Positions 54,675-64,000 of a stretch of DNA of 64,000 nt are shown piece by piece. Within the stretch, counting starts at the first letter, position 1. Every line of letters begins with the position of its first letter. The translations under genes and the position numbers were made by a program. The notes beneath the pieces were generated by a model. That model saw only the letters and a program-made list of their open reading frames with translations, did no database searches and was not told the origin of the DNA. Source of the stretch: Planctomycetota bacterium (lineage in GTDB: Bacteria > Planctomycetota > Brocadiia > SM23-32); assembly GCA_021161675.1 (NCBI GenBank), contig JAGHAF010000030.1, positions 9,376-73,375 of the forward strand. Reading direction: 5' to 3'.

Positions 54675-55727
54675 TTGCAAAGGAAACTCATGGCAAGCAT
54701 GAATGCGGAACCCACCGTCAGCGACACGCGAGGCAGGCCCGTTGGCAAGGCGGACCTGGGCCGCTTGCAGGACGGCTACGCGAATCTAAAGGCGCAGGTT
54801 CACAAAGTCATCGTAGGGCAGGACACGGTCATTGATTCTGTCCTGTGTTGTATGCTTGCGGGAGGGCATTGCCTGATCGAGGGCGTGCCGGGGCTGGCGA
54901 AAACCCTGCTTGTGCGCTCCATCGCTGAGGCCCTGCGCCTTGAGTTCAGCCGCATCCAGTTCACGCCCGATCTTATGCCCTCGGACATCACCGGCACGGA
55001 CATTATTCAGGAGGACCCTGAGACCCGCCTCAGGCGCTATACCTTCATAAAGGGACCGATTTTTGCGAACGTGATCCTGGCGGACGAGATCAACCGCACG
55101 CCGCCCAAAACGCAGGCGGCCCTGCTTCAGTGCATGCAGGAGAAGCAAGTGACGGTGACCGGCAAGACCTATAAGCTCACCGAGCCCTTTTTCATCCTCG
55201 CCACGGAGAACCCCATAGAGCAGGAGGGCACGTATCCGCTGCCTGAAGCGGCCCTGGACAGGTTCATGTTCATGGCCTACATCGCTTATCCGGCTCCCGC
55301 TGAGGAGCATCAAATCGTCAAGCAGACCACGGCGGGCGCGCAAGAGTCCCTTTCGCCGATCCTCAGCGGTGATGACGTGCTCTTGTTCCAGCAGATCGTT
55401 AGGACGGTCCCGGTAAGCGACGCCGTTATCGAGTACACCGTTCGGCTCGCGCGGGCGACCAGGCCCGACGATCCCCTGGCGACTGAGACAGTGAAGAAAT
55501 ACGTCAGCTGGGGGGCGGGGCCGAGGGCCGCTCAGTACATGACGTTAGGGGCCAAGGCATGGGCGTTGATCAATGGGCGCGTGACGGCCAGTTTCGAGGA
55601 CGTGGCCCTGGTCAGCCCCTTGGTCCTGCGGCATCGAGTGATAACTAACTTCAACGCCGAGGCCGACGGCGTCGGCGTCCAGGACATTATCAGCGACATA
55701 CTGCAGCACGTCGAGCTGCCCAAGTAG
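54675..55727 (+). CDS. MoxR-family AAA+ ATPase
   Basis: Walker A (GVPGLAKT) and AAA_3 architecture, 350 aa. Confidence 0.85.
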   Translation: MQRKLMASMNAEPTVSDTRGRPVGKADLGRLQDGYANLKAQVHKVIVGQDTVIDSVLCCMLAGGHCLIEGVPGLAKTLLVRSIAEALRLEFSRIQFTPDLMPSDITGTDIIQEDPETRLRRYTFIKGPIFANVILADEINRTPPKTQAALLQCMQEKQVTVTGKTYKLTEPFFILATENPIEQEGTYPLPEAALDRFMFMAYIAYPAPAEEHQIVKQTTAGAQESLSPILSGDDVLLFQQIVRTVPVSDAVIEYTVRLARATRPDDPLATETVKKYVSWGAGPRAAQYMTLGAKAWALINGRVTASFEDVALVSPLVLRHRVITNFNAEADGVGVQDIISDILQHVELPK

Positions 55728-55764
55728 CTTAGATGCTATCAATTCGGCGCGTCTCTGAACCTCG

Positions 55765-61700: not shown

Positions 61701-62641
61701 CATCAGGAACGGAAACCGAAAAATCGAGTACGGGGGCCTCCTCTGACAAATCCGGCGCCCGGCAGCGAGACCAGGCCGGCGGCGCTCAGGGAAAGGGCAA
61801 AGCCAGGGGCCACGGAGGCGTATCAGGCGCGCAAGCCGGAGAGTCGGGATCGAGCGGCTCTTCCGGCAGGGCGAGCTCACAGGAACGTATGCAAATGTTT
61901 CAGGCCAAACAGGCGGCTCTGCGAGAAGCGGCCTCGCAGATGAAAGCCGACCTCGCGCGGTTGCCTTCCGACGTAGGCACGCGCGAGGACGATGGGCAGA
62001 AAGGCACACCAAAGGCGGATGCCGACAAGCACCTGGCCCGCGCAATCACGAGCATGGAGGAGTTTGACGAGAAGATGCACGAGGCGCAGTTCAAAAGCCT
62101 TGCGAGTGACAAATCCGCCGCCGAGGGTTTGCGGAAGGCTCTCCAGAAAGCGTCTGAGGAGCTTGCGCTTGCCAGCAGTGCTCTCCGCAAGAAGTTGAGC
62201 GACACCCGGGAAGAGCTGGCTTCATATTACCAGGACCGCGCAGAGAAACTCTTCCAGTTGGCGCAGACCCTTGAAAAGCGCCTCACGCCCGCCCAGGAGA
62301 AGCGGATAATGGCACAGCTCCTGGAGGCGAAGGAACTCCTTGATAACGCCGCAAAGTCGCAGCCGAGCGCGAACTCATCTGCAGCGCCGAGCGATCTCGC
62401 CGCGCGTGCGCAGGCCGGCCCCGGCCATCTCCTCAACGATCAAGAGCTCTGGCGAGTCAACCCCAAAGCAGAAGAAGCGCGCCTGCTGGCGCGCCAATTC
62501 CTGGCTCTCGCCATCCGGACGGCGAAAAAGCAGAGCAAGCTAATTGAACAGGAAGTGTCTGATGCGGACTTCCACGAGATGGAAAGTAAATTCTTCGAGA
62601 ACGCGGCCAGGTACGACAGCCGCGAGACGGATGGCGAATGA
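58754..62641 (+). CDS. large membrane-anchored hypothetical protein with a ~400-aa acidic Gly/Ser/Gln/Glu-rich disordered region of ~38-aa tandem repeats and a C-terminal coiled-coil region
   Basis: One uninterrupted 1295-codon frame. N-terminal TM helices. Repeats HGGASG(A/T)(D/E)AE(E/K)(T/S)GSG between about aa 900 and 1050. ATGA overlap with the next gene. Confidence 0.5.
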   Translation: MAPAAEEALRHLVMRVKEVRRWLVALSALKVAALLFLFVTVYVAVFAYADHHLHMGLTARLAALCLLIAGSCGALYALARSLISHVSCSRAANHIESKISFRQQLVTAIEYDENKADYLYSEALADCVVQRVFEASADIDFKTTVARRNAYLFSVMIALGMCGVLFFAHNHYVFFSTYLARLTRPLEQVEPIPTTELIALTGDIVTEPDVKIRLAAEIRGRIPKKGLLVIEDTRPAPPYGHPQVIETQPRADGEGPPRLEEELSLKRGDYRYRFEAGKAASYRHKIHVSSVPKIASMTARVTLPGDTAIQPYVEDVQDFTLSVIEGSEIELTVRATEKLSKALVTGLNGQVVEAQPEMNGSFIMPFKADREGELKLELVGEENVANRDIPPLRIEFRELSSPRIELVSPERDYMATNVASVPVTFQLYDDFGLQKAAIYFEFPNGERRQIGMPLERGVRSATDTYTLELEDYDLSVGDAIVFHAEASGIRIATPKPQNRASKSNIYFVEIIPYRSWWQASQDLDIGGELYVIETLKDILEYTRAILKKTWALTDKEELTAQDKSQLDSINEDVTYSAEHLRTVRDSPVFQFTPAEIAAINGVLADFDEASAQLAGYDPASALPPEDKAYRTLRKLVGEKWKEPPAHGPGFTPPSKPKPDTIEVVKNTYLRKYDSEAIAQMFDTLTRKLAAATYHEENLKKEFDRFLAEQREPPIHRGSPETPESGAGDQSGEGEGEGSGQRSSQQEQGQESEAGQAQAPGESDNTQAQGQEPGAGEGEGQGQASSAQARQAPSGAAPAEGGGAEPAQPPPDQPGVEGQGEGEGQSESAQPQAQEPAPGQRGAPGHGGASEGQAQQSAPDQGEGQKGSPQSETREPTSTQGGAAGPGVGSGAKTEESASPGGQGHGGASGADAEETGSGEGLGQGGPRRAGSRQFRSNGGEAHGGASGTEAEKSGSGGFSGKTAHREGAQSGGSQGKSEDEGGASGTETEKSSTGASSDKSGARQRDQAGGAQGKGKARGHGGVSGAQAGESGSSGSSGRASSQERMQMFQAKQAALREAASQMKADLARLPSDVGTREDDGQKGTPKADADKHLARAITSMEEFDEKMHEAQFKSLASDKSAAEGLRKALQKASEELALASSALRKKLSDTREELASYYQDRAEKLFQLAQTLEKRLTPAQEKRIMAQLLEAKELLDNAAKSQPSANSSAAPSDLAARAQAGPGHLLNDQELWRVNPKAEEARLLARQFLALAIRTAKKQSKLIEQEVSDADFHEMESKFFENAARYDSRETDGE
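61440..61900 (+). repeat. four degenerate tandem DNA repeats of ~110-118 nt inside the giant ORF
   Basis: Recurring ggccacggaggcgcatcaggaacggaagccgaaaaatc...ggttcgggcgg units starting near 61467, 61575, 61693 and 61810. Confidence 0.6.
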
Positions 62642-64000
62642 TCCTTGCTGACTACCCCGGTCATCTTATCGCAGCGGCGCTGCTGGCTGTCGTGGCGGCT
62701 CTTCTGGCGCTTACTTATCGCGCGGAGGGCGCCCGCTATGCTGGCCGATGGCGTTGGATACTCGGCGGCCTGCGCTACGTCGCTCTGGCGGCCTTGCTTG
62801 TCGTAATCTGGAACCCGTCCCGCATCTTGAAGACTGAGACCACCGCTCGCAATACCGTCCTGGTGGTCTTCGACACCAGCGAGAGCATGTCAATCGCGGA
62901 CTGCGATGGCAGAAGCCGTCTGGACGAGGCGATTCGCATATTCCGAGAATCCCTGAGGCCGGGCAGCCCTGAGAGACCGCGTTACAGGGTTTACGGATTT
63001 GACACCTCATACTACGAAAGCGGTGTGCTGGAGGCCCTTCACAGGTGGGGACCGCGAACGAACCTGCGCGCCGCGTGCGCCTTGCTCAGCAACCGCCCGC
63101 ACAGCGCCAGCGGCGGCAAGACCAGCGGGGTAGTCGTCTTCACTGATGGTCAGGCCGAACAGAAACTGGTGGACTCCTACCTGCGGCCGACCGACAAGGA
63201 AACAAGGTTCGCCCTTATAGGCGTCGGCTCGCCGGAGTTGCATGACAACCTGGCGATCACCTCCATAGAGGCGCCGCCCAGAGCAACGATTGACACCGCG
63301 TATGACGTGCAGGTGCAGGTCAGCGCCACGTGTTCAGAACCGATGAACGCCGCAATCACGCTCTTAAAGGATGAATCAGTTATAGGCGTTCGGCAGCTGC
63401 GCGTCGCGGGCGGCGGCAGTGACGTTACAGTCGCTTTTCGCGTCCTGGCCGACCGGCTGGGCGAGCAGTGCTTCGAGGCGCGGATTGAGCTTTCCGAGGG
63501 CGAGGTCAATCTGGCCGACAACGTGCGACGGACAACGGTCCAGGTGATCGAGCCGCCCTTTCTAAAAGCGCTGCTGTATTCGCAAGTCCTGAACTCTGAT
63601 ATTGGGAAGGTGCGGTCGGCCCTCGCAAGGGACAAGAGGGTCCGGCTTGATGTGGCCTTGGACGTCATAAAGGGCTCTGCCCTGTCCGACATGGCCGGCG
63701 CCGCGTCCGGTTACGCCAGCCTGCCGCGGGATGCCGCCGGTTTCCGCAAGTACGACGCTATCATCCTGGGGCCTTGCTCCATGGACTCGTTTTCCGCAAC
63801 TCAGATCGAGGGCCTGTACAGTTTCGTCGCCGAGAGGGGCGGCGGCCTTATTCTGCTGCCCGGGCGCGGCCAGTACAGCATGTCAAATTCAAGCAACAAA
63901 TTGATCAGGGCATTGATCCCGGCGGAGTTCCTGCTCGCCGCCCGGGGATACCCGGTCAGTGCGGAAAACTCTCTTCAATTGACGGCGGATGGCATCGCGC
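62638..64000 (+). CDS. BatA-like von Willebrand factor A domain membrane protein (partial; continues past window end)
   Basis: Open frame to the window end. N-terminal TM helices and vWA MIDAS start VLVVFDTSESM. Confidence 0.65.
   Translation, partial: MILADYPGHLIAAALLAVVAALLALTYRAEGARYAGRWRWILGGLRYVALAALLVVIWNPSRILKTETTARNTVLVVFDTSESMSIADCDGRSRLDEAIRIFRESLRPGSPERPRYRVYGFDTSYYESGVLEALHRWGPRTNLRAACALLSNRPHSASGGKTSGVVVFTDGQAEQKLVDSYLRPTDKETRFALIGVGSPELHDNLAITSIEAPPRATIDTAYDVQVQVSATCSEPMNAAITLLKDESVIGVRQLRVAGGGSDVTVAFRVLADRLGEQCFEARIELSEGEVNLADNVRRTTVQVIEPPFLKALLYSQVLNSDIGKVRSALARDKRVRLDVALDVIKGSALSDMAGAASGYASLPRDAAGFRKYDAIILGPCSMDSFSATQIEGLYSFVAERGGGLILLPGRGQYSMSNSSNKLIRALIPAEFLLAARGYPVSAENSLQLTADGIA

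Follow-up and report, generated by a model that had tools for sequence, protein, structure and literature searches.

The stretch of DNA analysed here (the window) comprises 64,000 nucleotides (nt) of contig JAGHAF010000030.1 from a Planctomycetota bacterium, and positions 54675-64000 are filled by five co-directional plus-strand open reading frames (ORFs), the largest of which encodes a 1295-amino-acid (aa) protein with an acidic, repeat-bearing segment. These five ORFs probably open a conserved operon of seven genes, which encodes, in this order, a MoxR-type AAA+ ATPase, a DUF58 protein, a BatA_N membrane protein with a domain resembling von Willebrand factor A (vWA) (ORF3), the 1295-aa protein, a second vWA-like membrane protein (ORF5), an exported protein of typically ~280 aa (ORF6), and a DUF4159 protein exported by the twin-arginine translocation (Tat) route. 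Judged by profile comparison, the 1295-aa protein belongs to the DUF4175 superfamily, in which it is very divergent and is overlooked by current models, and we place high confidence in this identity taken together with the operon assignment. The cluster is a widespread, catalogued but functionally unstudied module and not a new kind of system.

The 1295-aa protein gives no match to Pfam (E<=0.01 for the whole protein, E<=10 for its halves) or to NCBIfam, and the TIGR02302 model does not match it at E<=1. The Pfam field is also empty for all of its 68-69 close homologues, which both PF13779 (the Pfam DUF4175 model) and TIGR02302 miss. Its assignment to the DUF4175 superfamily is based on a profile search, on intermediates that pass the Pfam threshold, and on profile-profile alignment. 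The family profile was run exhaustively with HMMER against 1.84 billion cluster representatives and retrieved 7518 of them at E<=1e-3, of which 3264 also reach E<=1e-10. Outside the close family lies a shell of 1000-1500-aa proteins (E 1e-57 to 1e-34) that align with profile positions ~7-980, among them P0139, P0142, P0154 and P0161 (E 1e-57 to 1e-44). Four of the eight shell proteins scanned pass the PF13779 gathering score of 27.3 with 35-45 bits, and a fifth has a sub-threshold match; relatives of the shell proteins match PF13779, and NCBI lists several of them under the name “DUF4175 family protein”. When aligned by hhalign, the window-family profile and a profile of 16 shell proteins match with a probability of 100% and an E-value of 8e-76 over 907 columns, extending from the N-terminal transmembrane (TM) region through the helical region. 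TIGR02302 also finds nothing in the acidobacterial and planctomycete DUF4175-type proteins P0261, P0161 and P0327. TIGR02302, a family of alphaproteobacterial low-complexity membrane proteins, is described as having TM helices together with a Gln/Gly-rich region, which in general architecture resembles the 1295-aa protein.

The possibility that the large ORF is an artefact of assembly or reading frame was considered and rejected, as the same sequence is found on an independently assembled contig of 99.6% identity. This public scaffold (European Nucleotide Archive ERZ23499370, here L001) corresponds to window 49642-64000 and differs across the large gene only by single-nucleotide polymorphisms and a 10-N scaffold gap. 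Furthermore, 68 homologues at E<1e-100 keep the overall organisation of the protein; from both observations, the 1295-aa ORF is therefore genuine. It is because of the gap that the public gene call splits the large gene into products of 293 and 999 aa. L001 contains two such 10-N gaps, at window 59545-59550 and 52773-52786 (L001 9900-9909 and 3132-3141), and the gap within the large gene has left the database with P0001, an artefact that lacks the N-terminal part of the protein.

Conservation of the gene order was scanned in one genome per GTDB species, giving 70 loci, two of which are distant relatives; nearly all are metagenome-assembled genomes (MAGs) of Phycisphaerae/Sedimentisphaerales, with some labelled Pirellulales or Candidatus Hydrogenedentota. 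Synteny was determined by tblastn with the seven proteins, and, among 67 loci of species-representative genomes, those were counted that offered enough flanking sequence. In all 47 testable loci, MoxR-DUF58-ORF3 lies directly upstream of the large gene, with DUF58 directly following MoxR (47/47), and ORF5-ORF6-DUF4159 lies downstream in all of the 45 that could be judged on that side. Beyond this group, the same seven parts stay together in permuted order across Acidobacteriota, Verrucomicrobiota and Planctomycetia. A Vicinamibacterales contig has the order GATase1_like (765 aa)-307 aa-MoxR-DUF58-BatA/VWA-DUF4175-DUF4159-DUF4159, a 5.1-Mb genome has GATase1_like-349 aa-DUF4159-MoxR-DUF58-BatA/VWA-DUF4175, a Verrucomicrobiales MAG has DUF4159-MoxR-DUF58-BatA/VWA-(1358-aa relative)-GATase1_like-330 aa, and the cultured planctomycete Rubripirellula amarantea has MoxR-DUF58-BatA/VWA-(1201-aa relative)-795 aa-359 aa. 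An earlier note on this DNA, made from the sequence alone, had proposed an undescribed variant of the MoxR-vWA envelope system; with the superfamily membership of the large protein, the fixed gene order, the recurrence of the same parts in these phyla and four of the seven parts forming an operon in Sinorhizobium meliloti (see below), this proposal goes too far. Literature searches for DUF4175, DUF4159, TIGR02226, PF13779 and PF13709 retrieved no functional study of these families.

The N-terminal TM helices of the 1295-aa protein, already recognised in the earlier note, are three in number according to Kyte-Doolittle (KD) hydropathy (aa 23-41, 61-79 and 150-168). A basic N-terminus is followed by a TM1-TM2 hairpin, a helical loop of ~70 aa (aa 80-149) and TM3, and the AlphaFold2 (AF2) model places helices at aa 3-53, 57-85, 88-144 and 147-170. 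By the positive-inside rule, the loop is predicted to be cytoplasmic; it carries the motif QQLVTAIEY..YPYS, with invariant A92, E96, Q103-V106, E110, Y111, Y118, Y120 and S121. This membrane module also aligns confidently with the wider superfamily in hhalign. It precedes three tandem β-sandwich domains of immunoglobulin (Ig)-like/macroglobulin (MG)-like type, modelled with a predicted local distance difference test (pLDDT) score of mostly 85-93 and containing the most conserved periplasmic motifs of the family, DDFGL and YF(I/V)EI.PY, and then a four-helix bundle, a disordered linker and a long helix. The AF2 model, which spans aa 1-700, has a mean pLDDT of 81.8 and a predicted template modelling (pTM) score of 0.48, so that the packing between domains is uncertain. 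The full-length model of homologue P0002 (54% identical, pLDDT 74.6) has the same layout; in it, the spacer is disordered and the C-terminal part forms a set of long helices. A Foldseek comparison of the N-terminal model with the PDB yielded only generic tandem Ig/MG matches (complement C3/C5, SiiE) at query-normalised TM-scores <= 0.22, and a sequence search of PDB chains with the family profile brought up nothing but noise from low-complexity and coiled-coil regions.

The acidic spacer (336 aa, aa ~705-1040) is rich in Gly (25%), Ala (13%), Ser (13%), Gln (12%) and Glu (12%), has a net charge of -23 and contains 0-4 hydrophobic residues per 50 aa. Its acidic, low-complexity nature had been noted before, with a length of ~400 residues that proved too generous. 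Tandem repeats of 38 aa, earlier taken to make up the whole segment, do occur, but only in ~4 degenerate copies within ~140 residues (aa ~900-1040, nt 61451-61873), marked by a (H)GGASG motif at aa 905, 943, 981 and 1021 and a more distant copy at aa 846; Tandem Repeats Finder (TRF) reports a period of 114 nt in 1.9 copies at 61580-61791 with 75% matches. With only 9% identity to homologues, the spacer is the least conserved part of the protein. Conservation peaks in the cytoplasmic N-terminus together with TM1, in the aa 80-149 loop, in the third β-sandwich and in the bundle. In 57 full-length homologues, the spacer measures 37-262 residues (median 149), and that of the window, at 373 residues by the same measure, is the longest. 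The low-complexity and repeat segment represents a lineage-specific expansion of a spacer common to all homologues.

Downstream of the spacer, the C-terminal domain is A/L/E/K-rich, conserved in 17 of 17 aligned homologues and folded into long helices in the P0002 model. It ends in the motif SD..F...E..FFENAA.Y immediately before the stop codon, and the superfamily consensus ends similarly (VP.EYR.LV..YY..LSE). The earlier description as a K/E/A-rich coiled coil agrees with this composition and helicity, but in a crude test heptad periodicity is restricted to two short stretches flanking the spacer, aa ~675-709 (60776-60880) and aa ~1043-1070 (61880-61963), for which 4/200 and 7/200 shuffles, respectively, reached the observed value.

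Table 1. Coordinates of the operon genes and of the parts of the 1295-aa protein (window positions unless preceded by L001)
Feature	Position	Strand	Basis
MoxR-type AAA+ ATPase (MRP/AAA_3 subfamily), 350 aa from TTG	54675..55727	+	Pfam
DUF58 protein, 311 aa, vWA-like fold	55765..56700	+	Pfam DUF58 5e-50, VWA_2 5e-9
ORF3, 685-aa BatA_N membrane protein	56697..58754	+	BatA_N 1.4e-13 on aa 1-76, TIGR02226 1e-14
1295-aa protein (divergent DUF4175 superfamily)	58754..62641	+	profile search, hhalign
Membrane module, aa 1-169	58754..59260	+	KD hydropathy, AF2 model
Three tandem Ig-like/MG-like β-sandwich domains, aa 196-290, 294-396, 403-510	59339..60283	+	AF2
Four-helix bundle, aa 526-639; then disordered linker and long helix, aa 667-704	60329..60670 (bundle)	+	AF2
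Acidic Gly/Ala/Ser/Gln/Glu/Pro low-complexity spacer, aa 705-1040	60866..61873	+	composition, TRF
Conserved helical C-terminal domain, aa 1041-1295 (255 aa)	61874..62641	+	homologue alignment, P0002 model
ORF5, first 454 aa in window	62638..64000 (runs off end)	+	full 716-aa product read from L001
ORF6, 376 aa, signal-peptide-like N-terminus	L001:15163-16293, 1.2 kb past window end
DUF4159 protein (ORF7), 279 aa	L001:16320-17159		8.9e-27

The MoxR and DUF58 pair that heads the cluster, stated in the earlier note, is confirmed. MoxR, for which an ATG at 54690 (345 aa) matching the L001 gene call is the likelier start, scores on Pfam AAA_3 (2.9e-62), AAA_lid_2 (5e-16) and bpMoxR (1.4e-9), and the DUF58 protein (Pfam score in Table 1) contains a DxSxS motif in the form DSSKSM. 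DUF58 proteins are the usual cytoplasmic partners of MRP-type MoxR ATPases. Neither protein has a TM helix or a signal sequence, and both are therefore predicted to be cytoplasmic. The overlapping junctions reported before are confirmed at DUF58/ORF3 (GTGA, the GTG start of ORF3 overlapping the DUF58 stop) and between the large gene and ORF5 (ATGA, the ATG of ORF5 overlapping the stop of the large gene), whereas the ORF3 stop overlaps the ATG of the large gene by 1 nt in a TAATG sequence; such overlaps imply co-translation as one unit. Promoter and terminator scans inside the cluster gave no signal above shuffle expectation, and a second copy of any operon gene was not found within the 64-kb window.

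ORF3 is indeed the BatA_N-domain membrane protein it had been thought to be. At its N-terminus, TM helices at aa 6-24 and 56-74 enclose an Arg-rich loop and form the double-TM hairpin of BatA_N/TIGR02226, a further TM helix lies near the C-terminus (aa 661-679), and the large middle part is presumably periplasmic. The DxSxS motif (D96, S98, S100) is invariant in the family alignment; in the Pfam scan, all 15 family members match BatA and two of the 15 match VWA_2, the match of the window protein itself reaching only 0.0098. In ORF5, two TM helices are N-terminal and one is C-terminal, and the protein further has a vWA-like domain and DUF7408/GATase1-like parts. The vWA assignment made earlier for this last protein is backed by its DxSxS motif of metal-ion-dependent adhesion site (MIDAS) type, DTSESM, which is invariant across the ORF5 family, but its VWA_2 match (8e-5, 23.6 bits) stays below the cutoff of 27, and BatA_N is not matched; within the family, DUF7408 is found in 8/14, VWA_2 in 3/14 and GATase1_like in 1/14 proteins. 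BLASTP shows nothing significant between ORF3 and ORF5, and their kinship is visible only by profile-profile comparison (hhalign probability 93%, E 2.9e-7, 555 collinear columns), according to which they are, at the level of their sequence profiles, distant paralogues with collinear architecture. A DUF4159-like domain inside ORF3 was also considered; hhalign of the DUF4159 (ORF7) family against the ORF3 family gave a probability of 0.6%, and ORF3 therefore cannot be said to hold such a domain.

Past the window end, L001 completes ORF5 and continues with ORF6, the DUF4159 protein and a glycoside hydrolase that is unrelated to the operon. Tetratricopeptide repeat (TPR; BatC), BatD and SH3 (BatE) domains were not found in the L001 genes after the large gene. 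The suggested look beyond the window therefore revealed no standard batB-batE continuation, in line with the earlier impression that the cluster differs from operons completed by BatB-E, and the companion search for well-characterised homologues of the large protein retrieved none. The Pro-rich C-terminal ~100 aa of ORF6 are absent from its homologues, whose matches span about 240-280 aa. Faint caspase-like matches of ORF6 (NF047832 0.0016, Raptor_N 0.15) are far below threshold; the position of the caspase His reads YYTGQ, and the Cys is retained in LDCPG, which suggests, if anything, an inactive caspase-like fold. The DUF4159 protein has a leader of twin-arginine type (SRRELLK...), and the invariant Cys, His and Glu residues of its family (C164, H197, E198, H240 and C241) hint at a catalytic or metal site.

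All proteins of the operon except MoxR and DUF58, i.e., five of the seven, carry TM anchors or export signals and would face the periplasm from the inner membrane, with MoxR and DUF58 in the cytoplasm. From the positive-inside charge distribution, ORF3, ORF5 and the DUF4175 protein are predicted to lie mostly in the periplasm, and this placement agrees with the measured topology of the BatA-type protein BB0173, whose vWA domain has been shown experimentally to face the periplasm (PMC5700661). Only three elements would then offer a handle from the cytoplasm, namely the Arg-rich BatA_N loop of ORF3, its equivalent in ORF5, and the strongly conserved helical loop at aa 80-149 of the DUF4175 protein. 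From this arrangement, we infer an inner-membrane-anchored, periplasm-facing complex for envelope maintenance under MoxR-DUF58 control.

A possible mechanism, which as a whole we regard as tentative and on balance doubtful, could operate as follows. A MoxR hexamer, with DUF58 as MIDAS-bearing adaptor, would dock on the cytoplasmic loops of the membrane proteins and spend ATP on building or rearranging a periplasmic complex, whose cohesion would come from the MIDAS sites of ORF3 and ORF5. Within it, the DUF4175 protein would act as a long tether reminiscent of TolA/TonB, composed of membrane-proximal Ig domains and bundle, the variable acidic spacer and a distal conserved helical domain that might engage another envelope layer or a partner. 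The output would be the maintenance of cell-envelope integrity and shape, as for the four-gene relative in Rhizobium, with whose envelope phenotype the proposed mechanism fits.

Several points weigh against this reading, from family assignment to mechanism. Even at lenient E-values, the 1295-aa protein has no direct match to PF13779 or TIGR02302, its membership in the DUF4175 family is therefore transitive, and the intermediates cover only positions ~180-390 of the 825-position Pfam model. The topology of the window proteins is a prediction, and the model leaves unexplained by which route a cytoplasmic ATPase acts on mostly periplasmic proteins. Structure searches returned generic Ig/MG and four-helix-bundle matches only, with no functional analogue. 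As heptad-like helices lie on both sides of the spacer, the spacer could be a loop between paired helices; in that case, it might be extruded from the protein and would not serve as a linear tether. Deletions of bat genes in Leptospira caused no morphology phenotype, and Bat protein levels were unchanged in a Francisella moxR mutant (both PMC3557215). Finally, the searchable literature contains no experiment on any DUF4175, DUF4159 or ORF5-type protein.

A bolder version of the proposal, which we consider improbable, would have the seven proteins form an unrecognised ATP-driven trans-envelope machine, in which the DUF4175 protein is a “ruler” controlled by MoxR-DUF58 through the cytoplasmic loops, the variable acidic spacer sets or senses envelope spacing, partners are held by the periplasmic MIDAS sites, and the whole is widespread in bacteria of the Planctomycetes-Verrucomicrobia-Chlamydiae (PVC) group, Acidobacteriota and beyond. 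If true, this would be a Tol/Ton-like function driven by an AAA+ ATPase and not by proton-motive force.

Other explanations start from the same gene content. One is a system for membrane-proximal unfolding and degradation, in which DUF58 recruits, MoxR unfolds and a peptidase-like component cleaves. MoxR-vWA operons with the membrane transglutaminase-like (TGL) peptidase YebA are predicted to act in this manner (PMC3495828), and the faint caspase-like match of ORF6 as well as the invariant Cys and His in DUF4159 would suit the cleaving part. However, none of the cluster proteins has a TGL match, the export signals of ORF6 and DUF4159 place both across the membrane from MoxR, and the ORF6 match is far below threshold, with a Gln, by inspection of the sequence, at the position of the usual His; such a role is unlikely.

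A variant of the classical Bacteroides aerotolerance (Bat) operon, conferring tolerance to oxidative stress, would account for MoxR and DUF58 being followed by a BatA_N membrane protein and MIDAS-bearing vWA-like membrane proteins, since Bat operons likewise start with MoxR and DUF58 (PMC5700661). This reading is already largely refuted by gene content: in L001 and in 45/45 loci, ORF5, ORF6 and DUF4159 are what lies downstream of the large gene, with no TPR, BatD or SH3 protein, and ORF3 and ORF5 differ from BatA and BatB in length (~700 against ~330 aa), in their additional domains and in their C-terminal TM helix. An oxidative-stress role is unproven even for true Bat proteins (PMC3557215), and we give this explanation little chance.

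The 1295-aa protein might also have nothing to do with the MoxR genes beside it and act on its own as a cell-surface adhesin or as a repeat protein of S-layer type, considering its tandem Ig-like domains, the adhesin SiiE among the structural matches and the acidic repeat region. Three N-terminal TM helices and a conserved cytoplasmic loop, in the place of a cleavable signal peptide, speak against an adhesin, as do start and stop codons that overlap the neighbouring genes and an invariant operon position in all testable loci, the gene being kept in the operon across phyla; this makes coincidental neighbourhood very improbable. An anti-phage or conflict system of MoxR-vWA type with the repeat protein as diversifying sensor, for which the bpMoxR score, the hypervariable spacer length and the ternary MoxR-vWA conflict systems known from Planctomycetes and other phyla (PMC7159879) could be invoked, is already disfavoured and hardly credible, given that AAA_3 fits MoxR far better than bpMoxR (2.9e-62 vs 1.4e-9), beta-propeller or effector domains were not found in the cluster proteins, PADLOC matches 0/7 operon proteins, gene order is fixed across species-representative genomes with housekeeping genes as neighbours, and variation is limited to the low-complexity spacer, touching no folded binding domain.

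Taken together, what the earlier note observed is largely correct, with exceptions in one of the junctions, in how far the repeats extend and in how strong the vWA match is, and its interpretation was half right in that the cluster is not a Bat operon, yet also not an orphan novelty. MoxR-DUF58-BatA_N operons are among the commonest uncharacterised envelope-associated gene clusters in bacteria; a seven-part version with fixed gene order across many genomes is now defined, and a Phycisphaerae/Hydrogenedentota subfamily annotated as “hypothetical protein” without a domain is placed in the DUF4175 superfamily, which counts about 7500 cluster representatives at 50% identity. No new principle is revealed; the value lies in the annotation and in a testable hypothesis for a widespread system, with the domain map and topology model opening specific experiments on MoxR-DUF58 docking, MIDAS ligands and spacer length.

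Elsewhere in the window, a 612-aa ORF at 33970-35808 (+) matches peptidyl-tRNA hydrolase only over its first ~184 aa, with no Pfam match for the remaining ~430 aa; it may be a fusion, an over-extended ORF or a protein with an uncharacterised C-terminal extension. Short overlapping ORFs surround a SLAC1/TehA-like ORF at 50900-51760 (-), which has only 163 aa (the public call gives 144 aa) and may be a truncated gene or pseudogene. Positions 6040-14244 and 18065-19747 include HypF (770 aa), a [NiFe] hydrogenase large subunit (512 aa) and a GAF-sigma54 activator, near which CarB, GuaA and a REC-PAS-GGDEF-EAL protein are encoded; the HypF/hydrogenase context is consistent with an anaerobic, hydrogen-metabolising Phycisphaerae-like organism, as far as gene content can tell.

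With regard to known systems, the layout of the 1295-aa protein invites comparison with TolA and TonB, which share an N-terminal inner-membrane anchor, a variable low-complexity periplasmic spacer and a distal domain that is conserved; the related Rhizobium operon, moreover, has an envelope-integrity phenotype. The proteins are unrelated in sequence and fold, and the comparison is one of possible mode of action and not of membership. In contrast to Tol/Ton, the operon has no TolQR/ExbBD-like motor, its energy source would be a cytoplasmic AAA+ ATPase, and any contact of the 1295-aa protein with outer membrane or peptidoglycan is purely hypothetical. The BatI cluster of Bacteroides fragilis and spirochaete bat clusters have MoxR and DUF58 at their head as in the window, and the theme of BatA_N-anchored inner-membrane proteins with MIDAS-type vWA domains recurs, but the window operon lacks BatC, BatD and BatE, adds DUF4175, ORF6 and DUF4159, and has ORF3 and ORF5 roughly twice as long as BatA/BatB.

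Proteins recognised by PF13779/TIGR02302 are homologous to the window protein along essentially its whole conserved length (the 907-column alignment above); in both, TM helices at the N-terminus are combined with a low-complexity stretch and a large part outside the cytoplasm, and in Acidobacteriota the DUF4175 gene occupies the same position, after MoxR-DUF58-BatA. The window protein differs in falling below detection by PF13779/TIGR02302 and in having the longest spacer among its close relatives. The sole paper using the DUF4175 name concerns a short N-terminal “DUF4175” region of the Acinetobacter baumannii division protein AdvA (PMC7481262). In Rhodobacter sphaeroides, the CenR envelope/division regulon takes in a TIGR02302 protein and a MoxR protein (PMC9275681), which are encoded at separate loci; this, too, speaks for an envelope role.

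A close counterpart is found in Alphaproteobacteria. The S. meliloti locus L077 (strain Ak57, CP090106.1, a 3.7-Mb record labelled plasmid pSymB) encodes MoxR, DUF58, a 937-aa fusion of BatA_N and DUF4159, and then an ORF5-like gene (L077:12678-14746), with no TIGR02302 match at the locus. This fourth gene is missing from the PLSDB gene table, and its sequence falls into two ORFs, of 197 and 492 aa, that overlap, which may reflect a frameshift or pseudogene in this strain or incompleteness of the table; these ORFs show weak VWA_2, GATase1_like and DUF7408 matches, as in the ORF5 family. L077 is presumably the syntenic counterpart of the RL3499-RL3502 operon of Rhizobium leguminosarum. A DUF4175/TIGR02302 identity of RL3502 was considered and discarded, the S. 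meliloti fourth gene being ORF5-like with no TIGR02302 match. According to PMC3893208, citing Vanderlinde 2011, RL3499 is important for membrane integrity and morphology in Rhizobium, and transposon-sequencing (Tn-seq) insertions in RL3499 and RL3500, the first two genes of the operon, impair growth in rich medium (PMC5118466). Both operon types share the order MRP-type MoxR, DUF58, BatA_N membrane protein and ORF5-like membrane protein, with the DUF4175 gene inserted between the third and fourth parts in the window. The alphaproteobacterial operon has four genes, without a DUF4175-type gene or ORF6, and its DUF4159 is fused to the BatA_N protein, whereas DUF4159 is free-standing and Tat-exported in the window type. 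The window cluster, hence, comprises the four parts of the Rhizobium-type operon plus a DUF4175 protein, ORF6 and a separate DUF4159 protein.

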